UHGV virus genome: UHGV-0389389 | Length of the DNA stretch: 62,942 nt | Direction: 5' to 3' (one strand) | Origin: a virus | Shown here: positions 4,991-51,754 of the stretch, one piece after another | Position numbering within the stretch: the first letter of the stretch is position 1 | Layout: every line of letters starts with the position of its first letter | Program-made: the position numbers and the translations under genes | The notes under the pieces: model-generated | Database searches by the model: none | What the model was told of the DNA's origin: nothing | What the model saw: the letters and a program-made list of their open reading frames with translations, nothing else

Positions 4991-5181
4991 TGGAAAAACA
5001 GATCGTCAGGAGCATAAGAAAAGGCTCCGCGCAGTGGAGTGAAGAGGATAGACTTCAGCTCGTATCAATTCTTGCAAAAGCAGGATATGTAGTAAAACTG
5101 GGAAGGAGAGTAGTGCCTGGAACTGAATCAAAGGCGAAACCCCAGATGGAGTACACGGTTGAATATTGGGAGGAAGAGTAA
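4981..5181 (+). CDS. Hypothetical protein
   Basis: ORF with an RBS, inside a co-directional gene block. Confidence 0.35.
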   Translation: MRMMEKQIVRSIRKGSAQWSEEDRLQLVSILAKAGYVVKLGRRVVPGTESKAKPQMEYTVEYWEEE

Positions 5182-5369
5182 TGAAGATTGGCGAAATTGT
5201 AGAGATCCTGATTAGGATAAAAGATAATTACGGATATTCGGATTACAGAAGAGAGGCTTTAGAAGAAACATGCAATCTTCTGGACAAGCTGCCGAGAATG
5301 GAGGAGGCGAAGGATTATGAACCGACCAGTTTATCAGGACAAAGCATGGCTGCAGAGCAAATACGATGA
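5181..5369 (+). CDS. Hypothetical protein
   Basis: An internal ATG at 5181 follows GGAGGAAGAG; the listed ORF starts earlier at 5166. Confidence 0.35.
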   Translation: MKIGEIVEILIRIKDNYGYSDYRREALEETCNLLDKLPRMEEAKDYEPTSLSGQSMAAEQIR

Positions 5370-5856
5370 GTTGAGAAGCATATACGCAATGGCCGAAGTT
5401 GCGGGATGCCATGCAAGGACAATTCACTATTGGATGTGTAAATATGGTATTCGAATGCACGGAATGACAGGGGAAAAGAAGAGAGAAGAGTCTATAAGGA
5501 AATCTGTTGAGGCAAGAAAAGGGAAACCTGGTTCTATGACCGGAAAACATCACTCTGACGAAACTAAAAGGAGAATGTCTGAGACAAGACGAGGCAAGGA
5601 CAATCCCAACTGGAAAGGCGGGATAACGGAAAAGATCAGAAAATTCCGAAGAAGTAAAGAATATTTGGCATGGGTAAAAGCGGTCTATCAAAAAGCAGAC
5701 GGTAAATGTGAGATGTGCGGAGCGGAAGACGGTCTTGAAGCACACCATATAGTAAGTCTTCATCAAGATTTTTCAAGAGCCTTGGATGTCGGGAACGGAC
5801 AATTGTTATGTAATGAATGTCATAAAAGGATACATGGAGGTGAAAATCGTGAATAA
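5317..5856 (+). CDS. HNH homing endonuclease with NUMOD3-like repeats
   Basis: GKHHSDETKRRMSE NUMOD3-like repeats; C-terminal HNH motif (CEMCG...EAHHIVS...NGQLLCNECHKRIH). Confidence 0.75.
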   Translation: MNRPVYQDKAWLQSKYDELRSIYAMAEVAGCHARTIHYWMCKYGIRMHGMTGEKKREESIRKSVEARKGKPGSMTGKHHSDETKRRMSETRRGKDNPNWKGGITEKIRKFRRSKEYLAWVKAVYQKADGKCEMCGAEDGLEAHHIVSLHQDFSRALDVGNGQLLCNECHKRIHGGENRE

Positions 5857-6847
5857 AAGCCGTATAGAATATTGCGATCACACGCTGAATATCGTAACCG
5901 GGTGTCGGCATGGATGCGAGTATTGCTATGCAAGAACCATGAGCCTCAGATTTTCCGGAAATATAAAGCTGAATATAAAGCAGGAGGATAAATACAGAAA
6001 GTGTGCCGGAGGGTACATACTGGATAACCCGTTTATTGGTGAAAATGGTAAACAGATTATCTATCCGTTTGGATTCGAGCCTACGCTTCACAGATACAGA
6101 TTCAATACGCTGGACAAGCTAAAGATGGGACAGAACATTTTTGTAGGAGCAATGGCAGATCTGTTTGGAGACTGGGTTCCGGATGCTTGGATAGATGAAG
6201 TGTTCCGGTGCTGTATGGAGCATCCACAGCATAATTATTTGTTTCTCACGAAAAATACGGAGAGATATGCGGATTTAGATATGCTTCCTGAAGGGGAGAA
6301 TATGTTTTACGGAACATCGATCACGAGGGAAGAGGAAATGCATAAGTTCAACTTCCTGCCGGCGCGGCGCAACACATTTGTGAGCATAGAGCCAATCTTG
6401 GAAGACGTTCTCCCGGAGCGGCATAACCTTTTGTTCCGGCAGGTGGACTGGGTAATCATCGGAGCCGAGACGGGCCGGAGAAAGGGTAAGGTCATTCCGG
6501 ATCCGGAATGGATCAGAAAGATTGTTGAAGTGGCAGAACAGAAAAAGACACCGGTATTCATGAAAGACAGTCTTATCGATATTGTCGGGGAAGATGCCAT
6601 GAAGCGGGAGTTCCCGGCCCAGCTTCTTGTGAGGAAAAAGAGTGAGAAAATCCTTGCAAAGTTGATGGGAGAATGTGTGGAATGCCACAAACAGAAAGAG
6701 AAAAACAAAATGGTATCCATTACGGCGCGGACCAAAAGAGGCGGTAAGACAAATGCTTTTGCGTATATGTGTAAACCGTGTTTTATAAAGTGGTGCAAAG
6801 AACATGGAGTAAATGTTCCTCCACTTGAAGGGCTGGAGGACAAATAG
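5834..6847 (+). CDS. Phage Gp37/Gp68 family protein (DUF5131-like) with a C-terminal zinc ribbon
   Basis: IEYCDHTLNIVTGCRHGCEYCYA matches the IEWT..TWNP.TGC...GC..CYA signature; start could be ATG 5834 or GTG 5849; a second Cys cluster (CVECH...CKPCFIKWC) sits near the C-terminus. Confidence 0.55.
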   Translation: MEVKIVNKSRIEYCDHTLNIVTGCRHGCEYCYARTMSLRFSGNIKLNIKQEDKYRKCAGGYILDNPFIGENGKQIIYPFGFEPTLHRYRFNTLDKLKMGQNIFVGAMADLFGDWVPDAWIDEVFRCCMEHPQHNYLFLTKNTERYADLDMLPEGENMFYGTSITREEEMHKFNFLPARRNTFVSIEPILEDVLPERHNLLFRQVDWVIIGAETGRRKGKVIPDPEWIRKIVEVAEQKKTPVFMKDSLIDIVGEDAMKREFPAQLLVRKKSEKILAKLMGECVECHKQKEKNKMVSITARTKRGGKTNAFAYMCKPCFIKWCKEHGVNVPPLEGLEDK

Positions 6848-7147: not shown

Positions 7148-7664
7148 GGCATTAATTGGGAGTCGGTCCAGGGCATCGGGAGAATATTTTGAAGGAATGA
7201 TCAGTGCTGCTTGCCAGTTCTATGAGGAAAAGGGAATTTCTGTTATAGAGAAAACTCCGGAGCCGATGCGGGTGCTTAAACCGTACGACCGGAAAAGAGG
7301 ACAATTCATCTGCTGTTTTGCAAAGCAGGCACAGCCAGACTTTAAAGGCGTATTGATGGATGCAACAATGGTCCTGTTTGATGCGAAACATACAGACAAA
7401 GAGAAAATCATGAGGTCGGTGGTGACACAAGAGCAGGAAGATTGTTTTGAAAGATACATGAAGCTTGGGGCGATGTGCTTCCTGGTTGTATCAATAGGAC
7501 TTGATAAGTTCTATCGGGTGCCGTGGGTTGTGTTTCGAGATATGAAAAAGCTATATGGGCATAAGCATATGGATGAAAAGGATCTTGAGCCATATAAAAT
7601 CAAATATTCAAATGGAGTTCTAAGATTTTTGGACGGGGTAGAGCTCCGGGGAGGAGAATCATGA
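7131..7664 (+). CDS. recU: Holliday junction resolvase, RecU-like
   Basis: ISVIEKTPEP...QPDFKGVL...VLFDAKHT pattern typical of RecU (PD-(D/E)xK fold). Confidence 0.6.
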   Translation: MDTYSRALIGSRSRASGEYFEGMISAACQFYEEKGISVIEKTPEPMRVLKPYDRKRGQFICCFAKQAQPDFKGVLMDATMVLFDAKHTDKEKIMRSVVTQEQEDCFERYMKLGAMCFLVVSIGLDKFYRVPWVVFRDMKKLYGHKHMDEKDLEPYKIKYSNGVLRFLDGVELRGGES

Positions 7665-8734
7665 AGTTAAAAAAGTATGAGTTGGTAAGAGCGGTTGACA
7701 AAGTAAAAAGTGTTGTTCAGAAAAATCCGCAAATTCCTGCTTTGGGAGGCGTTCTGATTAAAGGAGGTTATGCAATAGCTGCGAACAATGAAATGACGAT
7801 ACAGATCAAATTAGAGGGCACAGAGGATGAAACATTTATTGTTCCCATGAAGGCGTTTGATCTGATAAAAAATCTTCCGGATGGGGAAGTTGAGATTACA
7901 TGCGATAAAAACAATATAGTCACGATCAGGATGGAAAAGATAAAAAACAGCTATCAGTCATTTCCTGCAGAGAATTTCATGTATGACAAAATTATCAGTG
8001 ATGACGAAAACGAGATTATTCTCCCGGGAAAGTTACTGATGGATGCCATAGCACATTCCATATACGCAGCTGCAGATAAATCTCCTGGCCATCCGCAGCT
8101 TGAGGGGATATATCTGGAAGGAGAAGGTAAAAAGCTGAATTTAGCATCTACTGATGGACATGTAATGTGTTGGGATCAGATAGAAGCATCAGGGATATCG
8201 AACCTGAAGCTGATCGTACCAAAGGCTGCGGCTAAAAAATTAATCTCAATGGGAATGGATGATGATGTTAGATTGTCGCATGATGAAAACCGGGCAGTGC
8301 TTAAGACTGATAAATACACGATAAGCACAAGGATCTTTAGCGGAGAATTTGTGCCGTATAAGAAAATGTTTGTCGAAACAGAGAATTATACGATCGTTAA
8401 TCGTGATGAACTTATAGGCGCTATGACCAGAGCGAAAATGTGTACAGATGAAAACACTCCGGCCGAATTTGATGTAGAGGAAGGGGAAATCACGGTAATC
8501 CTGAGGGATAAGATAGCCGATTATCAGGAAAAAGTTTCTCTTCAAGCAAACGTAGGAGAAACTATTCGTATCGGATTTGATTCTAGATTGGTTCTGGAAA
8601 CGATAAAAGCTTTTACATGCGAGAATATCACATTAAACTTTTCCTCACCTTCAATGCCAATGATTGTTCAGGCAGAGGATTCTGATATGAAGGCTCTGGT
8701 CCTTCCGGTTAGATTGAGAGGTGCATCAAAATGA
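7661..8734 (+). CDS. dnaN: DNA polymerase III beta sliding clamp
   Basis: About 357 aa with three-domain clamp-like repeats; the N-terminal ...LIKGGYAIAANNEMTIQIKLEG... follows the usual DnaN beta-strand pattern. Confidence 0.65.
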   Translation: MKLKKYELVRAVDKVKSVVQKNPQIPALGGVLIKGGYAIAANNEMTIQIKLEGTEDETFIVPMKAFDLIKNLPDGEVEITCDKNNIVTIRMEKIKNSYQSFPAENFMYDKIISDDENEIILPGKLLMDAIAHSIYAAADKSPGHPQLEGIYLEGEGKKLNLASTDGHVMCWDQIEASGISNLKLIVPKAAAKKLISMGMDDDVRLSHDENRAVLKTDKYTISTRIFSGEFVPYKKMFVETENYTIVNRDELIGAMTRAKMCTDENTPAEFDVEEGEITVILRDKIADYQEKVSLQANVGETIRIGFDSRLVLETIKAFTCENITLNFSSPSMPMIVQAEDSDMKALVLPVRLRGASK

Positions 8735-12325: not shown

Positions 12326-12601
12326 ATGGAAGACCATTGTGTAGCGTGTGGGGAAGTGATACCAGAGGGGATACAGGTATGCCCGATATGTAATAGAAAA
12401 TATGAGGGAATACAGGCATTATCGAGACTGGACAATAAAACTTTAATTTGCCCGGAGTGCGGGACAGAGCAGGCGCTGGATGCTGCTCTTGGCGATAGCG
12501 GTATGTCGGAAAAGGAGAAGGCGGAATTTAAGGAAGGCGTCATACAGGCAATACATAGGCAAGAGGAGGAAATGAACCATGGAAACAAAAAGTGGAGTTG
12601 A
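12326..12601 (+). CDS. Hypothetical zinc-ribbon protein
   Basis: CVACG...CPICN...CPECG; RBS AAAGAGGAGG. Confidence 0.35.
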   Translation: MEDHCVACGEVIPEGIQVCPICNRKYEGIQALSRLDNKTLICPECGTEQALDAALGDSGMSEKEKAEFKEGVIQAIHRQEEEMNHGNKKWS

Positions 12602-13160
12602 ATTTGTTGCTCTTACAAAAGAGGAAATTGAGGATATGATCGCAAAGGCAGCGTTGGCCGGAGCCTCGGTGGCGGCTGAAACAATGGAAAAAGAGCATAG
12701 GAAAGCGCAGAAGGAATTGAAAGACAGACGCTTACATAATACCAGATTGCTTCTTAGAAATTACAGGGCTCTGAAAGAAAGTTGTACGAAGGCTGTGTAT
12801 GAGAGAGAACATGCTGAAAAGACCACCGCAGAGGTGATAGAAGATCTTATGTCTATGAAGGCGAGCGATGGAGTGATTGTAAATTCAATCAAAGAATCCT
12901 CTGAAAGAACAAGTATTATCATATCCCATGTGGATAGAATGCTTGATGTGTATCGGATGTATTGCGGGAAGTTTGGGGAAAAAGAAAAACGTCAGTACAA
13001 GGTGATCAAGGCTATGTACATAACAAAAGAGCATGCATCGGTAGCAGAATTGGCAAGAAAGCATGGTGTAAGCAAAGTAACAATTTATGATGACATTAAG
13101 ACGGCAGAGGAAAGACTTTCAGCTTTATTTTTCGGAATAAATGGATTGCATTTTTATTGA
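12579..13160 (+). CDS. ArpU/sigma-70 region-4-like late transcriptional regulator
   Basis: C-terminal HTH (SVAELARKHGVSKVTIYDDIKTAEERL) resembles the ArpU/RinA-type phage late activators found upstream of packaging genes. Confidence 0.45.
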   Translation: METKSGVEFVALTKEEIEDMIAKAALAGASVAAETMEKEHRKAQKELKDRRLHNTRLLLRNYRALKESCTKAVYEREHAEKTTAEVIEDLMSMKASDGVIVNSIKESSERTSIIISHVDRMLDVYRMYCGKFGEKEKRQYKVIKAMYITKEHASVAELARKHGVSKVTIYDDIKTAEERLSALFFGINGLHFY

Positions 13161-13205
13161 TTCTATAAGGTTTTTCTAAAAATAACGGATATGGTTAAGT
13201 TAAAC

Positions 13206-13234
13206 TTGACTTAATAACGGATAGCGAGTATGAT
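13206..13234 (+). promoter_or_regulatory. Sigma-A-type promoter TTGACT-N17-TATGAT
   Basis: TTGACT 13206-13211, 17-nt spacer, TATGAT 13229-13234. Confidence 0.5.
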
Positions 13235-13264
13235 AAGGGAGTAAAATCTTATCATAAAGCCATG

Positions 13265-13293
13265 AGCCACTGGGGATGCCCGGTGGCTTTTTT
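13265..13293 (+). terminator. Rho-independent terminator or attenuator hairpin
   Basis: AGCCACTGGGG-ATG-CCCGGTGGCT stem followed by TTTTTT. Confidence 0.55.
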
Positions 13294-13369
13294 CAGTTAT
13301 TCTGGGGAGGGGGAAGAGAAAAAGAAGATGAGAGAATGCTCCTTTTAAAAAGCAAAAGGAGATTTTACA

Positions 13370-14758
13370 ATGAATGGGTTTGCGATTTTGGCAATCTATG
13401 CAGTGGTAATGATCACTGCAACACTAATATTTACCAAAAAGGAAAAAAACGTGGAAAGATTCTGCGTTGGAAGCCGTAAGGAAAATTGGATAATGTCTGC
13501 TTTGAGCATAGCAGCTACATGGATCTGGGCACCGGCACTGTTTGTATCTACGGAAAAATCGTATACGAATGGGTTTGTCGGCCTTTTTTGGTTTTTGATC
13601 CCGAATGTATTATGTCTGATCCTTTTCATACCATTTGCGAAAAGGATACGGAGGGAAATGCCAGAAGGAATTACGCTGTCTGGATACATGAGAGATAAGT
13701 ACAAATCGGACGGAGTTAAGCGTGTATACCTCTTTCAGCTCATGGGCCTTTCGGTATTATCGACAGGAGTGCAATTATTGGCCGGAAGCCAGGTGCTAAG
13801 CGCGGCAACTGGAATGCCGTTCCAGTTGGTTACGGTTTTATTGGCTGTCATTGCTTTGTCTTACTCACTTTTTTCTGGAATAAAGGCTTCAATGCTGACG
13901 GACGCAATACAGATGGTTTTTATGCTGGCGGCAAGTACAGCATTCTTAATCATGGCAATTAGAGCGGGCGGAACATCCGGAATACTGGAAGGAATACACG
14001 GAATATCTGGAAATTATACGTCGTTTTGGTCGGAAGATGGTATAGAGGTGTTCCTCGCATTCGGACTACCGACTACAATCGGCCTGCTTTCCGGACCATT
14101 TGGAGATCAATCGTTCTGGCAGAGGGCATTTGCTGTAAAGAGCAATCGGATCGGCCGTGCGTTTTTTGTCGGAGCGATATTGTTCGGACTGGTACCGCTC
14201 TCCATGGGCATTATCGGATTTGCTGGAGCGGGAGCTGGTTACCAGGCGAAAGATCTTGGTGTCATCAACTTCGAACTGATTCAAGAGATGTTCCCAGCTT
14301 GGGCAGTACTGCCGTTCCTGTTCATGATTGTGTCTGGACTCTTGTCAACGGTAGACAGTAATTTATGTGCGGCATCATCGCTAGTGACAGATATGAGTGG
14401 TGGAAAGGAACTCAAAAAAACAAAGTGGGCTATGATTGCCCTGCTTGGAGTGGGTATTCTGATCGCCAATATACCGGGGATGACAGTCACGCACCTGTTC
14501 CTGTTTTATGGTACGCTGAGGGCGTCAACGCTGTTGCCGACTGTCATGACATTGAAGGGAGTAAAGTTTACGCCTAAAGGAATTCAGTACGGAGTTATCT
14601 CTGCTTTGGCCGTAGGGCTCCCTATTTTCGCCTACGGAACGGTTTTGAACAGTGGACCATATAAAACACTTGGAAGCCTTGCAACAGTGCTGCTGGGTGG
14701 AATTGTAGGGATGATAGTTACAAAGGCGGAGGTGCGGCATGGAAAGAGTGCTAGGTAA
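13370..14758 (+). CDS. Sodium:solute symporter family transporter
   Basis: About 12-13 hydrophobic segments; the N-terminal region (FCVGSRKENWIMSALSIAATWIWAPALF) aligns with the SSF signature around the conserved GR. Confidence 0.6.
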   Translation: MNGFAILAIYAVVMITATLIFTKKEKNVERFCVGSRKENWIMSALSIAATWIWAPALFVSTEKSYTNGFVGLFWFLIPNVLCLILFIPFAKRIRREMPEGITLSGYMRDKYKSDGVKRVYLFQLMGLSVLSTGVQLLAGSQVLSAATGMPFQLVTVLLAVIALSYSLFSGIKASMLTDAIQMVFMLAASTAFLIMAIRAGGTSGILEGIHGISGNYTSFWSEDGIEVFLAFGLPTTIGLLSGPFGDQSFWQRAFAVKSNRIGRAFFVGAILFGLVPLSMGIIGFAGAGAGYQAKDLGVINFELIQEMFPAWAVLPFLFMIVSGLLSTVDSNLCAASSLVTDMSGGKELKKTKWAMIALLGVGILIANIPGMTVTHLFLFYGTLRASTLLPTVMTLKGVKFTPKGIQYGVISALAVGLPIFAYGTVLNSGPYKTLGSLATVLLGGIVGMIVTKAEVRHGKSAR

Positions 14759-15521
14759 AAAGCAATCAATACAGAATGAAGACTGGCTAAAAGCCGGAAA
14801 GCGCATTGAAGAACTGGTTTCAAGAGAGGAACTGGATGAAAAGGTGCACTCAACCGTAGAGGAAATCCGGCAGATGACTGACGGGAAAAAAGCTGCATAC
14901 GCATGGTCCGCCGGAAAGGATAGTCTCGTACTTGGAGAAATATGCCAGGAAAGCGGAGTTACTGATTGCATGATGGCAATTTGCAACCTAGAATACCCGG
15001 ATTTTCTTAAATGGGTAGACCAGTACAAACCGAAAGGGCTTGAGATCATCAACACTGGGCAGGATCTTGAGTGGCTGTCGAAACATTTGAATATGCTGTT
15101 TCCGCAGGACAGTGCCACGGCCGCAAAATGGTTTTCAATCGGTCAGCACAGAGCACAGGCAAAATATTATAAGGTTCGTGAGCTGGATCTGATTCTGCTT
15201 GGTCGGCGCCGCGCAGACGGCAACTATTGCGGAAGACGATCAAACATCTATACCGACGGAAAAGGAGTTACAAGATATAGCCCTTTAGCCGCATGGAGCC
15301 ATGAAGAGATATTGGCCTATATCCATTATCACAATGTGCGGATGCCGCCAATCTATAAGTGGAAGAAGGGATATTTGTGTGGCACACATCCATGGGCGGC
15401 AAGACAATGGACCGGATCCGTGGAAAATGGATGGCGCGAGGTATACGAAATAGATGAAAGCATTGTAAGGGAAGCGGCGAAAGTTATTGACAGTGCTGCT
15501 GATTTTCTCAAAGCACTTTAA
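14739..15521 (+). CDS. PAPS reductase-like (PP-loop) protein
   Basis: PP-loop AYAWSAGKDSLVL (SGGKDS-type); overlaps the transporter stop codon by 20 nt, which points to translational coupling. Confidence 0.65.
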   Translation: MERVLGKKQSIQNEDWLKAGKRIEELVSREELDEKVHSTVEEIRQMTDGKKAAYAWSAGKDSLVLGEICQESGVTDCMMAICNLEYPDFLKWVDQYKPKGLEIINTGQDLEWLSKHLNMLFPQDSATAAKWFSIGQHRAQAKYYKVRELDLILLGRRRADGNYCGRRSNIYTDGKGVTRYSPLAAWSHEEILAYIHYHNVRMPPIYKWKKGYLCGTHPWAARQWTGSVENGWREVYEIDESIVREAAKVIDSAADFLKAL

Positions 15522-15581
15522 GTGGATTATTTGCAGATAATCCCATTGCTCCTTCAAATCAAGAATTTGGAGGAAAACGCT

Positions 15582-16211
15582 ATGAAACAATTAACCATGA
15601 AACTGAAAGATCTTGTTCGCCCAGAACGCAACATACGAATCCATACGGAAAAACAGTTGGAGGAGTTTGAAAGAAGCGTCAGGATGTTCGGACAGATCAG
15701 ACCTATTGTGGTGGATGAAAACAACACAATTCTTGCCGGAAATGGATTGTACGAAACCCTCTTGCGAATGAATCGGGAGGATGCGTTGGTTTATAAGTAT
15801 GAAGATCTGACAGAGGCACAGAAGAAGAAACTGATGATTGCTGACAACAAGATTTTCTCCCTCGGGATTGAGAACTTGGATACTTTGAATGAGTTTCTGG
15901 AAGAACTTAGTGGGGATCTGGATATCCCGGGATTTGATGAGGAAATTTTGAAGCAAATGGTAGCTGATGCTGACGAGATCACTGAGAAGATAGCGGAGTA
16001 CGGGACGCTCGATGAGGATGAAGTACAAAAGATAAAAGAAGCGAACGAGAGAAGGGAGCAGCGCGAAGCGACAGGAAACACCGCGCAATATGAAACACCG
16101 ACGTTTAGTGACGGCGATTCCGAAGGGCGCGACTCCGAGCCCGAACAGAAACCGGCCGAAACAGGGAGATTCGTTATTTGCACGAAGTGTGGTGAGAAGA
16201 TATGGCTGTAA
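15582..16211 (+). CDS. ParB-like nuclease-domain (ParB/sulfiredoxin fold) protein
   Basis: LVRPERNIRIHTE...IRPIVVDENNTILAGNGLYETL fits the ParB N-terminal domain pattern; acidic C-terminal tail. Confidence 0.55.
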   Translation: MKQLTMKLKDLVRPERNIRIHTEKQLEEFERSVRMFGQIRPIVVDENNTILAGNGLYETLLRMNREDALVYKYEDLTEAQKKKLMIADNKIFSLGIENLDTLNEFLEELSGDLDIPGFDEEILKQMVADADEITEKIAEYGTLDEDEVQKIKEANERREQREATGNTAQYETPTFSDGDSEGRDSEPEQKPAETGRFVICTKCGEKIWL

Positions 16212-17353
16212 AACGCTGCGAATCGAATATAGATGTGGTAAAAGCTGCTGAAATACGTATAAAAAATGTGTTCCGGAACGGACTTCCTGTATTCTTTTCT
16301 TTCAGTGGAGGAAAAGACAGCCTGTGCGTAGCACAACTCATTGTGAATCTCGCAAACCGCGGGGAAATAGACATAAGGCAGTTGACTGTCCAGTTCATAG
16401 ACGAAGAGGCGATCTTCCCGTGCATGGAAGAGATGACGAAGAAGTGGAGACGAAAGTTTATGATGATGGGGGCGAAATTCGAATGGTTTTGCATAGAGGT
16501 AAAACATTTCAACTGCTTCAATGCCTTGTCGAATGATGAGACGTTTATATGCTGGGATTCAACAAAGCAAGACGTATGGGTAAGACGCCCGCCGGCATTT
16601 GCGATCAGGACGCACAAGCTACTTCGCCCGAGGATTGACGCATATCAGGACTTCCTTCCCAGGACTTGCGCATCGGGAATCACACTGGTAGGTATTCGTA
16701 CTGCCGAATCATTGCAGCGATTACAGAACATCGCGGCAATGACACAGGCCGGAAAGACCATGACGAACAAAAGACAGGTATTCCCGATATATGACTGGAC
16801 CAATAATGATGTATGGCTGTACTTAAAACAGGAGAAGGTTGATATACCGGAAATATACCTGTTCTTATGGCAGTCAGGAAGTTCAAAGCAACAACTTAGA
16901 GTGTCACAGTTCTTTTCTGTAGATACGGCCAGATCTCTGGTAAAGATGAATGAGTATTATCCGGATCTCATGGAACGGATTATACGCAGAGAACCAAATG
17001 CATATCTGGCGGCACTATACTGGGATAGCGAAATGTTTGGACGTAGTAGCAGGAAACGTAGGACGATGGAAGACGGTGCCAAGGAAAAGGATTACAAGAA
17101 GGAACTCATATATATGTTCTCGAACATGGATGTATTCTTTGATACACCTCATAAAAGGCATATTGCGGAGAGATATCGGAACTTTTTTCTTCAGGTATCA
17201 GCCATTGCCAAACAAGAGGACTTCAAGCACATATATGAAGGACTCATTTCCGGCGATCCCAAAATGAGAACGTTCCGCGCGCTGTATCATCGGATTTACG
17301 GGAAATACATATCTGAGGCAAAGAAAACGGAGGAAAGCAGACATGGAAAATAA
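16202..17353 (+). CDS. PAPS reductase-like protein with a C-terminal extension (IbrA-like)
   Basis: PP-loop FFSFSGGKDSLCV; 383 aa, the size of IbrA/DUF3440-type proteins. Confidence 0.65.
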   Translation: MAVKRCESNIDVVKAAEIRIKNVFRNGLPVFFSFSGGKDSLCVAQLIVNLANRGEIDIRQLTVQFIDEEAIFPCMEEMTKKWRRKFMMMGAKFEWFCIEVKHFNCFNALSNDETFICWDSTKQDVWVRRPPAFAIRTHKLLRPRIDAYQDFLPRTCASGITLVGIRTAESLQRLQNIAAMTQAGKTMTNKRQVFPIYDWTNNDVWLYLKQEKVDIPEIYLFLWQSGSSKQQLRVSQFFSVDTARSLVKMNEYYPDLMERIIRREPNAYLAALYWDSEMFGRSSRKRRTMEDGAKEKDYKKELIYMFSNMDVFFDTPHKRHIAERYRNFFLQVSAIAKQEDFKHIYEGLISGDPKMRTFRALYHRIYGKYISEAKKTEESRHGK

Positions 17354-17864
17354 ATTGTTTGCCCCGTTGGGTACACTGCAATGGGTACCGCGGAGCATGT
17401 TAAAGCCAAACGATTACAACCCGAACAAAGTTTCGAAAGAAAATTTAAAGCTGCTCACACAGTCCATTCTTACCAATGGATGGACACTTCCGATTGTTGT
17501 AAGACCGGATTATACGATTATAGACGGATTCCACCGATGGACTGTTTCGGGCGAAGAGCCCCTATTGTCTATGCTTGGCGGGAAGGTGCCTATTGTTATC
17601 GTTGAACATTCGGAGAGATCGGAGGATATCTATGGCACCGTAACGCATAACAGAGCGAGAGGTACCCACCTGTTAGAGCCTATGAAGGCGATTGTGAAAG
17701 AACTCATGAACGAGGGGAAAACCGTAGATGAAATAGGAAAACAGCTTGGAATGAAGCCGGAAGAGATTTTCCGGTTATCTGACTTCTCGAAAGAGGACTT
17801 TCTTAACATGATGACCAAAGGAGTTACGGGGTTTTCTAAAGCAGAATATGTCACAAAAATCTGA
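17343..17864 (+). CDS. ParB/sulfiredoxin-like nuclease-domain protein (IbrB-like)
   Basis: IIDGFHRW (ParB DGxHR motif); translationally coupled to the preceding PAPS reductase. Confidence 0.65.
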   Translation: MENKLFAPLGTLQWVPRSMLKPNDYNPNKVSKENLKLLTQSILTNGWTLPIVVRPDYTIIDGFHRWTVSGEEPLLSMLGGKVPIVIVEHSERSEDIYGTVTHNRARGTHLLEPMKAIVKELMNEGKTVDEIGKQLGMKPEEIFRLSDFSKEDFLNMMTKGVTGFSKAEYVTKI

Positions 17865-17963
17865 TGTCATTGCGTTATAGTACATATAGAACAAAGACCG
17901 GCGGCGCGGAAGAAAGCGACTGCCGGTCTATTTGTATCCGAAAAAAATACGATATAGGAGGTG

Positions 17964-18788
17964 ATGGCGGTGCCGAGAGCAAGAAGCCCTGACAGCATAG
18001 AGGCGGAGAAGTTGTATAAATCTGGCATGGCTCTTGTTGATATCGCAAAGAAACTCGGCAAGCCAGAGGGAACCGTCCGAAGATGGAAATCAACCCAAAA
18101 ATGGGATGATAACGGTAAAAAAAAACAAGGCGAGCGTTCGCAAAAGAAAAGTGGATCAGAAAAAGCGAGCGTTCGTAAACGAGGCGGACAGCCCGGAAAC
18201 CAGAATTGCAAGGGAAAGCAGAACGCTAAAGGGCATGGAGCCCCGAAGGGAACGCAGAACGCCCTGAAGCATGGAGGGTATTCCGCCGTCTATTGGGATA
18301 CGCTTGACGATGAAGAAAAAGAGCTCATTGAGACAATGCCGCAGGACGAGGAAGAGATACTGATAAACCAGATCATGCTGTTTACAGTTCGGGAGCGCAG
18401 GATCATGAAAGCAATCAATAAGTACCGCGAAGCAAAGGGCGGTGTTTACGTGTCCGGCGTGACAAAGTTTGAGGAAAAGAGGATGTTCAAAGACGATGCG
18501 GAAAGAGAACTTTACGACAACCGGGTTCAGGAGAAGGTCGAGAAAGGCGATCGGCTGCCCGGAGAGCATTACAGTCTGCAGACAATGACCTCTTCCTCGG
18601 CAGATCTGGTTGCGCGTCTGGAGAAGGAACTCACCTCTGTTCAAAGTCAAAAGACAAAAGCTGTAGATGCTCTTGCAAAACTCAGATTTGAGAAGGAGAA
18701 GATCGCAGGAGAGTCGAAGGGCAACGAACTGGTGCGTACTTGGGCGGAGAGCGTCATAAAAGCAAGGAGGGAAAAGGATGGACAATAA
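17964..18788 (+). CDS. terS: Terminase small subunit
   Basis: N-terminal HTH, a GAPKGTQNALKHGGYS motif typical of Firmicutes TerS, a coiled-coil C-terminus, and position directly upstream of TerL. Confidence 0.65.
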   Translation: MAVPRARSPDSIEAEKLYKSGMALVDIAKKLGKPEGTVRRWKSTQKWDDNGKKKQGERSQKKSGSEKASVRKRGGQPGNQNCKGKQNAKGHGAPKGTQNALKHGGYSAVYWDTLDDEEKELIETMPQDEEEILINQIMLFTVRERRIMKAINKYREAKGGVYVSGVTKFEEKRMFKDDAERELYDNRVQEKVEKGDRLPGEHYSLQTMTSSSADLVARLEKELTSVQSQKTKAVDALAKLRFEKEKIAGESKGNELVRTWAESVIKARREKDGQ

Positions 18789-20256
18789 TATGGATTGGCT
18801 GTCGGATTTCCTTGATGAAAGCATACCGCTTTGGCGCGATGATCCCGTGATGTTCTTCTGGGAAGTGCTTGGATTTGAACCGGATGAATGGCAGGCAGAA
18901 GCTGCCGAAGATCTGGCGCACAATCCGAAAGTCAGCATTAAGTCCGGACAGGGCGTAGGAAAGACCGGTCTGGAGGCTGCGGTATTCCTGTGGTTTATTA
19001 CCTGTTTTCCGTACCCTCGTATTGTGGCAACGGCGCCAACGAAACAGCAGCTACACGATGTACTGTGGTCTGAAATTTCAAAGTGGATGAGCCACTCTCC
19101 TTTGCTCTCCAGGCTCCTAAAATGGACAAAGACATATGTTTATATGGTCGGCAATGAAAAGCGTTGGTTTGGGGTAGCGAGGACTGCTACAAAGCCAGAG
19201 AACATGCAGGGATTCCACGAGGACAATATGCTGTTCATCGTTGACGAAGCGTCCGGCGTAGCAGATCCGATCATGGAGGCTGTCCTCGGTACCTTGTCAG
19301 GAGAGAACAATAAGTTGCTTATGTGTGGCAACCCGACAAAGACTTCCGGAACATTTTACGATAGCCATACACGGGATCGAGCCTTATATAAGTGCCATAC
19401 TGTATCATCGGCAGACAGCAAGCGGACCAATAAAGAGAATATTGATTCGCTGATCAGGAAGTATGGGTGGGATTCCAATGTGGTGCGTGTGCGTGTCCGT
19501 GGGGAATTTCCGAATCAGGAAGACGATGTATTTATAGCATTGTCCACGATCGAGCAGTGCGGAAGTCGCCTGTTTGAACTTCCGGAGGATAGCCGGTTGC
19601 CGTATATCATATTCGGAGTCGATGTAGCGAGATTTGGTGATGATGAAACCGTAATATACAGAAATGCGCGCGGCAAGCTGAAGATCGCGGCGAATAGAAG
19701 AGGGCAGGACCTCATGAGAACAGTCGGCGATATTGTCCGTCAGTACAAGAAAGCAGTTAAAGAGTTCCCGGATTACCGAGGCAGAATCTATGTGAACATA
19801 GATGACACCGGCCTTGGCGGCGGCGTGACAGATCGATTACGGGAGGTTAAAAGGGAACAAAAGCTGAACAGGCTGTACGTTGTCCCTATTAACGCAGCTG
19901 AAAAGATCGAGACAGACACAAAAGCAGGGAAAGACGCTGCGGAGCATTACAATAATCTGACAACGCACATGTGGGCGACGTTGAAGGACCTCATGGAGAA
20001 CAAAGAGGTTGAGATTGAGGAAGATCAGGAGACGTTTGCACAGCTTTCATCCAGAAAGTACTTCCTTGCGAGCAACGGAAAGCTGGAGGTTGAAAGCAAG
20101 AAAGAAATGAAAAAGCGAGGGTTGGACTCCCCGGACAGGGGTGATGCATTGGCATTATCCGTATACCTTGGAAAAATCAAGAAGTATACTGGAAGCGCAC
20201 CGAATCAGGAAGACGCTGCCGGTCTTGGAAAGAGCAGCTATTGGAGAAACAAATAG
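18778..20256 (+). CDS. terL: Terminase large subunit
   Basis: Walker A KSGQGVGKT and Walker B LFIVDEASGV, followed by a nuclease-domain-sized C-terminus. Confidence 0.85.
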   Translation: MDNNMDWLSDFLDESIPLWRDDPVMFFWEVLGFEPDEWQAEAAEDLAHNPKVSIKSGQGVGKTGLEAAVFLWFITCFPYPRIVATAPTKQQLHDVLWSEISKWMSHSPLLSRLLKWTKTYVYMVGNEKRWFGVARTATKPENMQGFHEDNMLFIVDEASGVADPIMEAVLGTLSGENNKLLMCGNPTKTSGTFYDSHTRDRALYKCHTVSSADSKRTNKENIDSLIRKYGWDSNVVRVRVRGEFPNQEDDVFIALSTIEQCGSRLFELPEDSRLPYIIFGVDVARFGDDETVIYRNARGKLKIAANRRGQDLMRTVGDIVRQYKKAVKEFPDYRGRIYVNIDDTGLGGGVTDRLREVKREQKLNRLYVVPINAAEKIETDTKAGKDAAEHYNNLTTHMWATLKDLMENKEVEIEEDQETFAQLSSRKYFLASNGKLEVESKKEMKKRGLDSPDRGDALALSVYLGKIKKYTGSAPNQEDAAGLGKSSYWRNK

Positions 20257-44762: not shown

Positions 44763-44878
44763 AGCGGCTGCCGTTATGTGGGGGCAGGTGGAACAATGGC
44801 TCCAACGCCGGCGTCTTCAACGTCAATCTGAACAATCCCCGCTCGAACTCCAACTCCAACGTCGGCTTCCGCTCCGCT
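44763..44878 (+). repeat. DGR template region (TR)
   Basis: Non-coding copy of VR, rich in AAC/AAT codons in the VR frame. Confidence 0.7.
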
Positions 44879-45033
44879 CTACCTTCGTGGTCAGATGTTA
44901 TAAACTCAAGGGTTTATATCCAGTACAGAAGGGTAAAGGATCTTGTTTCCGTTGCGATAGCAAAAAAATACTATTTAGCACAAGCCGAGAGTATCGATAT
45001 TGAGAAATCCGCAGTGCTTTACGGGAAGTTAAT

Positions 45034-46128
45034 ATGTCGATTAGAAATGTTTTTTCAGATATTTGTTCCTTTGAAACATTGCTACAAGCAGAAAGGAACG
45101 TCAGAAAAGGGAGAAGATATGGAAAAGCGGAATTGAGTTTTTGGGCGAACCTTGAAGATAATATATACCGCATTTCAGAATCCATTAGTAACCTTCGTTT
45201 TCCTCCGGACCGATACTATTCGTTTTATGTATATGAGCCTAAGTTGCGAAGGATTATATCAGCTGATTATACCACCAAAATCATACAAAGGGCGGCGTAT
45301 GATGTTCTGAATCCGATATTATGTAAAGGTTTTATATCAGATACATATGCATGCATCAAAGGGAGAGGGCAGGTAAATGCAATGAAACGGCTGGCATCAT
45401 GGGTGGATCAGGCAGCCGATAGCGGAGAAAATTGGTATTATCTGAAAATGGACGTAGAGAAATTCTTTTATAGAATTGACCACGATATCCTGATGAATAT
45501 CATTGAGAAGAAAATAGGGGATAAAAAAACGGTTAGGTTATTGGAACACTATATTTGTGAAGCGTCTAGTCCTTTCGGACTTCCATTAGGAGTAAAAAAT
45601 CCTATGGAAGTTGCTGAAGAAGATCTGCTATGGGATGTCGGAATTACAATCGGTGGAGGACTATCCCATATGTATGGAAACATGTATCTTAACCAACTTG
45701 ATCAGCTCGCAAAGAGAACATTCGGTATAAAGAAATATATACGGTTAATGGACGACATAGTGATCCTGTACCCGGACAAATCGGTCCTTCATAAATATAA
45801 AAAAGAGTTTTCTGAGTTTTTATCCGATGTATTACATCTGCGATTAAATAATAAGACGGCAATTCGACCTATAAATCAAGGAATGGAGTTTGTCGGATAC
45901 CGTATTTGGCCGCATAAAGTCAGGCTGAGAAAATCAACCAGTCTTAGGATGAAACGGAGGCTGAAAAAAGTGCAGGAGGATTATCGAAATTATGAAATGT
46001 CATTTGAGAAGGCAAATGACACGGTTATGAGCTATATGTCTCTTATGAAGCACTGTGACTGCGAAGCTCTTAAAACAAAGATCTTTAGCGATTTTGTGCT
46101 TACGCATAACCCGAAGGAGGCAAACTAA
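45034..46128 (+). CDS. DGR reverse transcriptase
   Basis: RT motifs: YIRLMDDIVIL (YxDD) and GGGLSHMYGNMYLNQ (resembles the DGR-type IGNxxSQ motif 4); about 364 aa. Confidence 0.75.
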   Translation: MSIRNVFSDICSFETLLQAERNVRKGRRYGKAELSFWANLEDNIYRISESISNLRFPPDRYYSFYVYEPKLRRIISADYTTKIIQRAAYDVLNPILCKGFISDTYACIKGRGQVNAMKRLASWVDQAADSGENWYYLKMDVEKFFYRIDHDILMNIIEKKIGDKKTVRLLEHYICEASSPFGLPLGVKNPMEVAEEDLLWDVGITIGGGLSHMYGNMYLNQLDQLAKRTFGIKKYIRLMDDIVILYPDKSVLHKYKKEFSEFLSDVLHLRLNNKTAIRPINQGMEFVGYRIWPHKVRLRKSTSLRMKRRLKKVQEDYRNYEMSFEKANDTVMSYMSLMKHCDCEALKTKIFSDFVLTHNPKEAN

Positions 46129-50079: not shown

Positions 50080-51003
50080 TTAAGCCGCTACTGATGCAGC
50101 GTTTTCTTTCAACTGTTTCATCATGTGAAGTCTACATGTTTTAAATTCATCCCCATACAATCCAAGTCGATTTGTTAAGATGTGGTACATCAAAGTCACT
50201 TTCTTATCTGCAGAGTATCCGGAAACACTTCTGAATACAATTTTGTCGTTGGATTCTATTGCCCATGCAGACATGGCAAGACAAAACTGAATATATGCTT
50301 TTATTCGGCCGGCGTGCAATGTACTGTTGAAAAGTCTGAATTCCACGGTTCCTTTTGAGAAAAAACTATGAAGATTAAGTGCGTGGTACCTTGTTTCGTT
50401 GTAATGGTTGTGGTTTACGCCGCCCCAATAGTTATCATTCGCCTCACTGTACCAAATTTGTTCTGCCTTATCTTTTGTGAGATTAGATTCTTTTTTCATG
50501 GTATCGTAAAGTTTCTTACAGATTGGTCTGCACCAGCGATCTTTTCTGGCTCCGATGTTCAATGCTTCGTATATAATTTCCTGTCTTGAGAGCATGAAGT
50601 TTACCATTCTGCGAAGTGATGTAGCTGTATGATTTGCTCCATCAATATGAATGTGAATGCCGCAGCTGCTATGAGGCACTCCGCCAATCTCTTTGAACTT
50701 TCGGATGATATTCTGTAATGTCTCGATGTCTTCGTATTTGAGCGGCGGAGTAACGAATTCGACTCTATATTCATCTGGATTTGCAGATCCTACATTCATC
50801 TTTGGTGAAATGGAACTATCTCTCATTACTTTCCAAGTTCTTCTTTGCGAATCTTTTATAGTTCTTGTGTAATATGCGTCTCTTCTTGGACCGGAAATCG
50901 TTCCTCCAACGACTTCCTGAACGGCTTTTGCGGCCATCTCTCTTGTTATCCCGGTGAATTCAACCTCAACACCAAATCTCTGTTTTTTTAAAAGTTCTGA
51001 CAT
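50080..51003 (-). CDS. Putative amidoligase (glutamine-synthetase-like Amidoligase_2 family)
   Basis: N-terminal FGVEVEF; about 300 aa; adjacent to a GGCT partner, a pairing reported before in comparative genomics. Confidence 0.45.
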   Translation of the reverse strand: MSELLKKQRFGVEVEFTGITREMAAKAVQEVVGGTISGPRRDAYYTRTIKDSQRRTWKVMRDSSISPKMNVGSANPDEYRVEFVTPPLKYEDIETLQNIIRKFKEIGGVPHSSCGIHIHIDGANHTATSLRRMVNFMLSRQEIIYEALNIGARKDRWCRPICKKLYDTMKKESNLTKDKAEQIWYSEANDNYWGGVNHNHYNETRYHALNLHSFFSKGTVEFRLFNSTLHAGRIKAYIQFCLAMSAWAIESNDKIVFRSVSGYSADKKVTLMYHILTNRLGLYGDEFKTCRLHMMKQLKENAASVAA

Positions 51004-51188
51004 GTTTTTTCCTCCTTATTCATTCGCCGTCTACGAATGTATGTTCTTGTTTTTGTGGTTGTATATTAACATATGTACACGTCTTGTCAATACATTTTCG
51101 GAAATTATTTCTTTGAATACAGAAATAAAATTGACAAAAACAGAAAAATATCCTATAATAAGGAAAAAGAAGAGAAGGAGGGATAGTT

Positions 51189-51401
51189 ATGATTTCGTAC
51201 AATCCTTTGTGGAAAACCTTGATAGATAAGAATATGAAGAAAATGGACCTAAAGGAACTGGCTGGAATAAGCAATACAACTTTGGCAAAGCTTGGAAAAA
51301 ATTGCAATGTAAGCACAGAGATCATATGGAGAATCTGCGTGGCGCTTGATTGCGATATTGATGATGTAATGGAGATTGACAGGAGAGACTCGTTAGAATA
51401 A
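51189..51401 (+). CDS. XRE-type HTH DNA-binding protein, a paralogue of the gene at 49312
   Basis: LKELAGISNTTLAKL...VALDCDIDDVMEI; the CxALDC motif is shared with the 49312 gene. Confidence 0.55.
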   Translation: MISYNPLWKTLIDKNMKKMDLKELAGISNTTLAKLGKNCNVSTEIIWRICVALDCDIDDVMEIDRRDSLE

Positions 51402-51754
51402 TATTGTATATATGAAGGTGAAGAGATATGTATAAAATAGTTGGACGTCTGATAGGGGGAGAGCCAATTACAGATGGAATTGGCATAAAAGAAATAGAAA
51501 AGACGTATAAAGTCAAGTGTAAATTTACTCTTATTATAAAATTCCTTTATGCTAAATTTTTCTATGATTGGGTAAAAGTAGAAGAATACAAAGAATAAAA
51601 AAACAATATTCATCTGTGATGTTATTTTGATGTTCATATATTTGTGTAATAATTGTAATATATAATATGGAAGAAAAGTATAAAAAAATATGTAGTATAT
51701 GTATATGAACAAACAGAAAAAGCACTGATAAATCTTGAGTTTGAATAATAAGCA

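Follow-up and report, generated by a model that had tools for sequence, protein, structure and literature searches.

Why would a tailed phage keep the gene for a sodium:solute symporter in one row with PP-loop and ParB-like genes, directly ahead of its terminase? The question is raised by positions 13206-17864 of the virus genome UHGV-0389389, whose 62,942 nucleotides (nt) are the window of this analysis. The phage is temperate and tailed and belongs to a type that is common in Clostridia of the human gut, and the window encodes an integrase, an endolysin, a reverse transcriptase of the diversity-generating retroelement (DGR) type, and a DUF5131 protein; the IMG/VR contig UViG_3300008482_000001 shows 100% identity to the window over the stretch compared. 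Comparison with related loci strongly supports a functional coupling of the transporter with the ParB/PP-loop genes, and the cassette may serve to modify the phage DNA with the help of an imported compound. The cassette genes and the terminase genes that follow are:

13370..14758, + strand: SSF transporter, 462 aa (Pfam SSF, 5e-23; phrog_20720, 3e-214)
14739..15521, + strand: PAPS1, CysH-like PP-loop protein, 260 aa (PAPS_reduct, 3e-9; phrog_424 'PAPS reductase')
15582..16211, + strand: ParB1, ParB-N-like protein, 209 aa (phrog_620 'ParB-like', 3e-45)
16202..17353, + strand: PAPS2, IbrA-like PP-loop protein, 383 aa (PAPS_reduct, 1e-12; phrog_2302 'PAPS reductase', 2e-97)
17343..17864, + strand: ParB2, IbrB-like ParB/sulfiredoxin (Srx) protein, 173 aa (Pfam ParB_N; phrog_2159 'ParB-like', 9e-72)
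17970..18788, + strand: TerS, terminase small subunit (NF040601, 1.4e-41)
18778..20256, + strand: TerL, terminase large subunit (gene calls on identical contigs)

The five plus-strand open reading frames (ORFs), which run from SSF over PAPS1, ParB1, and PAPS2 to ParB2 at 13370-17864, were confirmed, and the Pfam and PHROG matches agree with the SSF, PAPS-reductase-like, and ParB-like assignments made in the original prediction. The predicted 20-nt overlap of SSF and PAPS1 is present at the junction, with a GGAGG motif within the 3' end of SSF, upstream of the PAPS1 ATG. ParB1 and PAPS2 overlap by 10 nt, and PAPS2 and ParB2 by 11 nt. The mechanical ORF of ParB1 starts at a GTG at position 15522, whereas the gene callers on identical contigs choose the ATG at 15582, which is preceded by a GGAGG Shine-Dalgarno (SD) sequence. 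With the ATG, a 60-nt spacer with its own SD sequence separates PAPS1 from ParB1; with the GTG, the two genes abut. A scan of positions 12400-18900 predicted no plus-strand terminator between SSF and TerL, and the only terminator-like site on this strand (13264-13289) is located upstream of SSF; neither a terminator nor a promoter was found between SSF and PAPS1. Because of the overlaps, the SD sequences inside the upstream genes, and the lack of a plus-strand terminator from SSF to TerL, the genes from SSF through TerL appear to form a single transcription unit, of which TerS and TerL would be the downstream continuation. The transporter would thus share this unit with the ParB/PP-loop genes, rather than being a cargo gene closed by its own terminator, as the prediction had allowed. 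The spacer between ParB2 and TerS (17865-17969) contains an inverted repeat, GACCGGCGGCG...CGACTGCCGGTC, which may serve as an attenuator or in packaging; on identical contigs, the gene callers also place a 42-aa ORF there. All five cassette genes are under strong purifying selection, with ratios of nonsynonymous to synonymous substitution rates (dN/dS) of 0.03-0.18, similar to TerS; the ratio for SSF is 0.06-0.09.

The cassette genes are also inherited together in most related loci. The bacterial set was built from one genome per species and the best 80 SSF matches (54-97% identity), with hosts in Lachnospiraceae, Oscillospiraceae, Anaerotruncus, Flavonifractor, Agathobaculum, Anaerovorax, and Clostridioides difficile, and the 71 loci with at least 4 kb of downstream sequence were counted. 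In 61 of these 71 Clostridia genome loci, SSF is followed by the complete set of four partners; six lack PAPS1 only, and at least ParB1 and PAPS2 are present in 68. The few other incomplete loci are explained by contig ends, an IS21 insertion (locus L119), or a deletion (L151). Among the viral loci with enough flank that were found via the transporter, 42 of 45 carry all four partner genes, and a reverse search from PAPS2, the IbrA side, recovered the transporter upstream in 57 of 59 viral loci. Transporters with as little as 36-50% identity still adjoin IbrA-like (25-55%) and IbrB-like (40-73%) genes. Three orders were observed overall: SSF-(PAPS1)-ParB1-IbrA-IbrB, ParB1-SSF-IbrA-IbrB (L385, L451, L457), and ParB1-IbrA-IbrB-SSF (L452), while L447, L460, and L463 have SSF-IbrA-IbrB. 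The linkage on which the prediction had relied thus persists in other genomes down to about 36% identity.

A more distant version of the cassette is found in the cultured Faecalibacterium phage Taranis, where a 333-aa membrane protein, gp35, is encoded between a 'RinA-like activator' and the genes ParB-IbrA-IbrB-...-TerS. A BLASTP comparison of gp35 with SSF gave no match, and the homology is only seen by profile-profile comparison: hhalign aligns gp35 with the transporter family at a probability of 95% (E 4e-8), in collinear order along some 210 columns. As this comparison shows, gp35 belongs to the transporter family in a truncated and diverged form. In 69 of 71 Taranis-type loci, the membrane protein is followed by ParB-IbrA-IbrB.

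Sequence identities suggest that the cassette is exchanged in two blocks. In L015, SSF and TerS have 94% and 96% identity but ParB1-PAPS2-ParB2 only 63-68%, L120 displays the reverse pattern, and mosaicism is also seen between L015 and L016. The ParB1-IbrA-IbrB block thus appears to be one exchange unit and the transporter another, compatible unit, and we infer that such independent exchange fits a coupling via a metabolite better than a tight protein complex. Deletion variants were also observed: in L011 (~5072-5339) and L151 (~7374-8027), unless these are assembly artefacts, the start of PAPS1 is fused to the end of ParB2, such that ParB1 and PAPS2 are lost while the transporter and the terminase are kept. 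In L119 (7323-11023; Eubacterium plexicaudatum ASF492), a 3.7-kb IS21-like insertion encoding an IstA-like transposase of 457 aa and an IstB-like ATPase is located between the transporter and PAPS1, and the N-terminus of PAPS1 is truncated.

As judged from these neighbourhoods, the conserved core consists of the transporter, ParB1, the IbrA-like, and the IbrB-like protein. PAPS1, which is missing from about ten related loci where the remaining cassette genes persist, is an optional and dispensable accessory member. The cassette had been thought to be inserted between a late regulator and the terminase; the comparison instead shows it to be a conserved feature, ancestral to a large phage group. 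The description of the four enzyme genes as a tandemly duplicated PAPS/ParB pair was also rejected. PAPS1 and PAPS2 resemble each other in the motif region only (E 0.017), as do ParB1 and ParB2 (E 0.022), and both comparisons are between proteins of different PHROGs, that is, anciently diverged subfamilies.

The transporter itself has the hallmarks of its family. It matches the Pfam model SSF (PF00474, TC 2.A.21) at 82.1 bits (cut-off 22.8) and the superfamily model TIGR00813 at 105.6 bits, under the cut-off of 184, while the cut-offs of all substrate-specific NCBIfam models are missed (panF, 71.5 versus 328 bits; PutP, 58.4 versus 515.5 bits). Its best sequence relative in the PDB is the urea/H+ symporter DUR3 (8.7e-15). 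The AlphaFold2 (AF2) model has a predicted local distance difference test score (pLDDT) of 84.5 and a predicted template modelling (TM) score of 0.85, and a Foldseek search with this model gave TM scores of 0.80-0.82 to CHT1 and DUR3 and of 0.75 to SiaT and NIS, with SGLT within 0.75-0.82. The model thus has a complete SLC5/SSF fold of the LeuT type. A HMMER search with SSF against 1.84 billion representatives of 50%-identity clusters identified 1634 relatives at E <= 1e-3, of which 242 reach E <= 1e-30. All close relatives that could be placed are located on phage-sized contigs or in prophages, and the best matches in bacterial genomes are all within this prophage cassette, which suggests a small, distinct, and phage-restricted SSF subfamily (phrog_20720). 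The identical transporter sequence occurs in 529 blocks of the assembly collection. Among the isolated phages of the GenBank collection, no full-length transporter was found, and the sole match in that collection is an unverified faecal contig.

Both PP-loop proteins reach the cut-off of the Pfam family PAPS_reduct (22.5 bits), with 37.5 bits for PAPS1 and 48.7 bits for PAPS2. This family, PF01507, takes in CysH, CysD, and the eukaryotic FAD synthase. Residue conservation in the cassette proteins was scored over about 100 homologues, across which the PP-loops SAGKDS in PAPS1 (SxGKDS in homologues) and SGGKDS in PAPS2 are kept. The closest PDB protein to PAPS1 is CysH; in the alignment, the conserved LCGTHPW of PAPS1 falls on the stretch of E. 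coli CysH that reads SVGDTHTT. The catalytic cysteine of the C-terminal ECGLH-type motif was not seen, as no cysteine is conserved beyond C214 of PAPS1 or anywhere in the C-terminal half of PAPS2, and the cassette proteins score 17-25 bits with the cysH/PAPS_reductase equivalog models (cut-offs 154-254). That PAPS1 is a true PAPS reductase was therefore rejected. PAPS2 has an RxAES-type motif, three conserved cysteines (C97, C105, and C117), and a conserved stretch of 160 residues at the C-terminus that matches no assigned domain. In tblastn searches, it matches genes annotated as IbrA, such as IbrA of phage PhiR5_2 (6e-21), and its best local NCBIfam matches include CysD (8e-9). With the PADLOC profiles, local matches were obtained to DndC (4e-9, residues 159-212 only, about 54 residues) and BrxP (9e-7). 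The analogy to IbrA/IbrB and DndB/DndC drawn in the original prediction is therefore reasonable, given phrog_2302, phrog_2159, and the local DndC match, while the DUF3440 domain that it had listed for a Pfam check had no match in PAPS2 at E <= 0.01.

The two ParB-like proteins differ in how they are recognised. ParB1 has no Pfam match and is identified via PHROG and PADLOC profiles only, which include the ParB-like N-terminus of methyltransferase fusions (phrog_498, 6e-28; PADLOC MTase_II, 4e-13); it has GNGLY in place of the arginine motif GxxR, and a C-terminal CxxC. ParB2 matches Pfam ParB_N at 32.1 bits (cut-off 26.3) and a Noc-like NCBIfam model, and contains the DGFHRW motif noted in the prediction, which is of the DndB/IbrB type (DGxHR), followed by a C-terminal helix-turn-helix (HTH). 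Members of the ParB family are classic DNA-binding clamps. The nucleotide-binding motif GxxR/GERRxR is absent from both proteins, which score far below the cut-off of TIGR00180, and no ParA gene is adjacent to the cassette.

How the operon is controlled can be approached from the leader between the upstream HTH gene and SSF, where the following features were identified:

12579..13160, + strand: HTH protein, 193 aa (Pfam HTH_11 at the C-terminus; phrog_1558, function unknown)
13206..13234, + strand: sigma-70-like promoter, TTGACT-17 nt-TATGAT (10/12 positions match)
13241..13255, + strand: leader motif GTAAAATCTTATCAT, just after the -10 element, containing a -10-like TAAAAT
13264..13294, + strand: terminator-like hairpin, GC-rich, 11 bp, followed by a T-run; lies 3' of the promoter and 5' of SSF
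13304..13361, + strand: SD-like purine tract GGGGAGGGGG, anti-SD GCUCCUUUU, and true SD AAAAGGAG

Most related loci have a comparable promoter at the corresponding place. The other features were counted per sequence in 108 unique leaders and 108 shuffles. The motif TA[AC]AAT[CT]NT was found in 92 of the leaders versus one of the shuffles, and a hairpin with a folding free energy (dG) <= -12 that ends in at least four T residues in 97 versus three. The stem sequences of the hairpin are entirely different between lineages, while its position is kept. In the minimum-free-energy fold of the 135-nt leader (z = -3.6), CUCCUUUU pairs with AAAAGGAG, and the pattern of SD-like, anti-SD, and SD elements was recovered in 70 of the 108 leaders; this arrangement is possibly a translational gate for SSF. 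Taranis has the same layout, with the motif and a 13-bp hairpin stem. Taken as a unit, the promoter, the GTAAAATYCTAAWTCA motif, the terminator hairpin, and the SD/anti-SD arrangement occur at 13206-13369 in the window, at 3990-4204 in L070, and in more than 100 diverged phages, including Taranis. No Rfam family was identified for the leader, as a search of 13000-13500 at E <= 10 gave chance-level matches only. A riboswitch upstream of the transporter was considered and rejected, since an Rfam scan of the window at the gathering threshold gave RT-14 RNA only, and a known aptamer is unlikely because the gap of about 23 nt between promoter and hairpin is too short.

The leader unit is a candidate for a new antitermination or riboregulatory element. 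Since promoter, leader motif, and terminator hairpin precede SSF, we infer that the cassette comprises the first genes of a regulated late (packaging) operon. The HTH gene is conserved upstream of SSF in the Lachnospiraceae-type loci, and its 193-aa product is, by position only, a candidate for the late regulator. The arrangement resembles the lambdoid PR'/tR' unit, which has a -10-like pause element near the promoter and is read through by Q, in that a promoter, a -10-like TAAAAT among the first bases to be transcribed, and a putative intrinsic terminator are placed upstream of the late genes. It differs in the added SD/anti-SD arrangement and in that no Q homologue was identified, the upstream 193-aa protein matching HTH_11-type models only.

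What could the coupled proteins do? In the reading that we tentatively prefer, a phage-specific SSF secondary transporter would import a small molecule, which would then be used or needed by a ParB-guided PP-loop set consisting of ParB1, the IbrA-like ATP pyrophosphatase, and the IbrB-like ParB/Srx protein, with the CysH-like PAPS1 as an optional helper. The replicated phage DNA would thereby be covalently modified shortly before packaging. The characterised PP-loop enzymes (CysD/CysH, ThiI, TtuA/NcsA, LarE, TilS, DndC) make an adenylate at an oxygen, which is then swapped for sulfur or nitrogen. By the same chemistry, an oxygen of the substrate would be adenylated and displaced by sulfur or an amine, while the ParB-like proteins would provide loading on DNA and nucleotide-dependent control, in the way that DndB serves DndC and DpdB serves DpdA. 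DndC is a PP-loop enzyme with a three-cysteine 4Fe-4S centre that works with the ParB-superfamily protein DndB (PMC10853773), and DpdB is a ParB-like ATPase that aids DNA base exchange (PMC12839542). A role directed at DNA is suggested because ParB2 combines ParB_N, an HTH, and DGxHR, because ParB1 is of the domain type that is fused to phage DNA methyltransferases, and because PAPS2 has local matches to DndC and BrxP in addition to its three conserved cysteines. That the cassette is a DNA-modification module with an imported co-substrate, or a precursor of it, where both the DNA target and the role of the co-substrate are deduced, falls somewhat short of an even chance in our estimate. The full chain, from an exogenous precursor via a ParB-guided PP-loop enzyme to an undescribed thio- or amino-substitution of base or backbone before packaging, with the leader as a new control element of the late operon, is rather doubtful. 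The leading guesses for the imported compound are a sulfur donor or oxyanion, since the family names and the APS-kinase neighbours described below would fit, and an amine, since the neighbours DUR3, CHT1, and PutP and a TilS-type chemistry would fit. For sulfur there are only hints, namely that all the enzyme families have members with sulfur or sulfate chemistry and that an APS kinase is found in three distant loci.

A number of observations weigh against a DNA-modification module that depends on import. The sequence does not reveal the substrate, and the nearest characterised relatives of SSF include carriers for urea, choline, pantothenate, proline, sialic acid, and iodide. Taranis gp35 lacks the near-invariant positions D246/Q251/R252 and may not be a functional transporter. 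PAPS2 misses the cut-offs of the DndC and CysD models, with 27.9 bits against 290.4 for TIGR03183 (DndC). Its AF2 model is of low confidence (pLDDT 62.8, and below 50 over residues 99-127 in the region of C97/C105/C117), and Foldseek recovers with it a generic PP-loop fold only (NcsA, LarE, TtuA, TilS, FAD synthase). We know of no member of the IbrA/IbrB-type proteins with a DNA-modifying activity. The sole experimental label for IbrA/IbrB is 'co-activator of prophage gene expression' (Sandt et al. 2002, listed in PMC8065619).

The two halves of the cassette also occur apart. IbrA-like genes are present in at least 222 GenBank phage records. Mycobacterium phage Kamiyu encodes a ParB (gp1), a PAPS reductase (gp4), a ParB (gp5), and a terminase (gp6), with no transporter and no annotated TerS. 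Bacillus phage 035JT001 has a ParB, a PAPS reductase, a methyltransferase, and later a further ParB, again with no transporter, and phages of S. thermophilus and E. coli carry a plain IbrA-IbrB without one. Because such transporter-free phages carry the trio or IbrA/IbrB pairs, import is not generally required, and the transporter is better described as a clade-specific addition than as a universal requirement. Conversely, the most distant relatives of the transporter (28-37% identity), on the environmental viral contigs L168-L223 and L157-L167, have no ParB/PP-loop neighbours. Instead, of 60 loci, 51 have a P-loop protein (GPQGSGNH) next to the transporter homologue, 40 a protein resembling methyltransferases dependent on S-adenosylmethionine, and 21 an HxD..H protein. 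In L180, L198, and L206, the genes that come after the transporter homologue encode an APS kinase (Pfam, 1.5e-15) and a cytidylyltransferase-like protein. For the partner families c1 (P-loop), c2 (methyltransferase-like), c3 (HxD..H), and c7, searches with Pfam, PHROGs, and PDB profiles and member-wise Pfam searches gave nothing significant, the best being of the AtsK/TauD type at E 0.12; the only partners that can be named are the APS kinase, an NAD-dependent epimerase, and a GT1 glycosyltransferase. The environmental clade looks like a second, different transporter-enzyme module.

Other explanations of the cassette were also considered. The trio may act on DNA without modifying it, as a late co-activator, an anti-silencer, or a terminase helper, while the transporter would aid the physiology or nutrient supply of the host late in infection. 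Such a role in regulation or packaging agrees with the naming of the family for the reported activation of prophage eib genes by ibrAB, with the promoter-terminator leader, which is typical of regulated late operons, with the DNA-clamp nature of the ParB family, and with the fact that the trio abuts the terminase in distant phages, including Kamiyu with its missing TerS annotation. The window phage, however, already has a canonical TerS, the IbrA/IbrB genes are located away from the terminase in those phages of S. thermophilus and E. coli that were examined, and an activator encoded within its own target operon would be awkward. Moreover, the intact and conserved SGGKDS and the conserved cysteines argue for catalysis, and a phage-specific transporter that tracks the trio through three gene orders would be left unexplained, so that we consider this role unlikely. 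It is also improbable that the cassette encodes a soluble pathway, in which the imported compound would be adenylated, phosphorylated, or otherwise converted (to APS/PAPS, a cofactor, or a nucleotide-like product) for metabolism or counter-defence. The breadth of PF01507, the local match of PAPS2 to CysD, and the Foldseek matches to FAD synthase, LarE, and TilS are in line with such a pathway, and PAPS1 is most CysH-like among PDB proteins. Proteins of the Srx fold use ATP in reactions on sulfur oxyacids, which points the same way, as do the small P-loop, methyltransferase-like, and HxD..H partners of the environmental clade and the APS kinase with the cytidylyltransferase-like protein in its three loci. 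Yet ParB2 carries an HTH and ParB1 is of the DNA-methyltransferase-associated type, the position before the terminase is conserved across phyla, PAPS1 lacks the catalytic cysteine of CysH, and no equivalog cut-off for CysH, CysD, or APS kinase is reached; to our knowledge, no SSF member carries sulfate.

If the proteins instead hit the DNA or nucleotide pools of the host or of competitors, with the membrane protein serving in superinfection exclusion, the truncated gp35 of Taranis, which is retained without the conserved polar residues, would be accounted for, and ParB/Srx proteins of conflict systems have been proposed to be nucleases or effectors that degrade nucleoside triphosphates (PMC10853773). 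Against this stand the full-length transporter, which is modelled as a complete SSF fold and is strongly constrained, the expression from a late operon behind a terminator, which is ill-suited to the protection of a lysogen, and the finding that the transporter and ParB2 match no PADLOC defence model. We regard such a counter-defence function as quite improbable. There is, finally, the chance association of an unrelated moron or auxiliary metabolic gene with an IbrA/IbrB module. Stand-alone metabolic genes are common in phages, phage PAPS reductases are treated as auxiliary genes of sulfur metabolism in the literature (PMC12323421), and the deletions in L011 and L151 spare SSF but take out the region from PAPS1 to ParB2. 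In contrast, SSF overlaps PAPS1 with no terminator or promoter in between, the linkage is near-universal, and the subfamily is, among the best matches, confined to phage contexts. Because of the co-occurrence counts, the deep divergence over which they hold, the three gene orders, the Taranis homologue, the selection on the genes, and the exchange in blocks, unrelated cargo is very unlikely.

The cassette is among the commoner uncharacterised gene sets of the human and animal gut viromes, with relatives in prophages of Lachnospiraceae, Oscillospiraceae, Clostridioides difficile, and other hosts. Phage genes for PAPS reductases are routinely scored as 'sulfur-metabolism auxiliary genes', whereas they are here part of a fixed module with ParB-like proteins and a phage-only transporter. 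Should the reading as a DNA-modification module be true, it would explain IbrA/IbrB and the puzzle of 'ParB + PAPS reductase next to terminase' across phages of several phyla, and add a new class of phage DNA modification or anti-restriction chemistry. It would also be the first phage known to us that imports a building block for DNA modification, and the epigenetic armour of abundant gut phages would then depend on supply from the gut lumen. The question is experimentally accessible with the cultured phage Taranis on F. prausnitzii and with lysogenic type strains. Cultured lysogens with the cassette include Enterocloster clostridioformis CP125624, Otoolea muris DSM 111138, Acetatifactor muris DSM 23669, Anaerotruncus colihominis DSM 17241, Agathobaculum desmolans ATCC 43058, and the C. 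difficile strain of OX246690.

Elsewhere in the window, an Rfam RT-14 RNA (72.8 bits, E 4.5e-8) is located directly 5' of the reverse transcriptase gene at 45034-46128 (RVT_1, 7.6e-17), and the region 44877-46128 is probably a DGR in the tail-fibre region. An Amidoligase_2 gene (PF12224, 1.6e-62) stands beside a 230-aa ORF on the minus strand at 50080-51712, in a lysogeny/moron region that adjoins the integrase (51832-53334); the two make up a further uncharacterised enzyme pair of this phage. The DUF5131 (Gp37/Gp68) protein is encoded at 5786-6847, and since its family recurs upstream of the cassette in the diverged relatives L002, L006, L007, and L071, it may share the DNA-metabolism theme of the cassette.

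How does the cassette compare with known systems? In the literature searched, neither the transporter link nor phrog_20720 nor the leader element was found to be described, which agrees with the original prediction that a transporter-coupled module had not been described before. The coupling to the transporter is thus what is new, while ParB plus PAPS-reductase modules of the IbrA/IbrB type are already known and widely annotated, without biochemical characterisation. Among the transporters of the SSF/SLC5 group (DUR3, CHT1, PutP, PanF, SiaT, NIS), the likeness consists of the Pfam match and the superposition at TM 0.75-0.82; the window protein differs in being shorter (462 aa), in its phage-restricted clade, and in scoring below all substrate-specific cut-offs. 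IbrA/IbrB are encoded on an island of E. coli ECOR-9, and the genetics of ibrAB and the activation of prophage eib genes were reportedly described by Sandt et al. in 2002. The window shares with them (phrog_2302/phrog_2159) a PAPS-reductase-like gene that is followed, with an 11-nt overlap, by a ParB/Srx gene with DGxHR, and PAPS2 and ParB2 match genes of cultured phages that bear the labels IbrA or IbrB, but it adds ParB1, the optional PAPS1, the transporter, and the position at the head of the packaging operon, and no DUF3440 was detected. DndB/DndC, along with SspD and BrxP, also pair a ParB-superfamily protein with a PP-loop ATP pyrophosphatase, and the three conserved cysteines of PAPS2 may be a further likeness. 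The match of PAPS2 is, however, short and far below the cut-offs, the cysteine dyad of DndC is not evident in it, and the partners DndA, DndD, DndE, SspA-C, and PglZ are missing from the cassette and its 10-kb flanks; we know of no transporter in the Dnd, Ssp, and BREX systems. Finally, DpdA/DpdB and the fusions of ParB-N to methyltransferases (phrog_498) resemble the cassette in that a ParB-like NTPase or DNA-binding domain accompanies or targets an enzyme that modifies DNA, but the catalytic partner in the window is a PP-loop enzyme rather than a transglycosylase or a methyltransferase.

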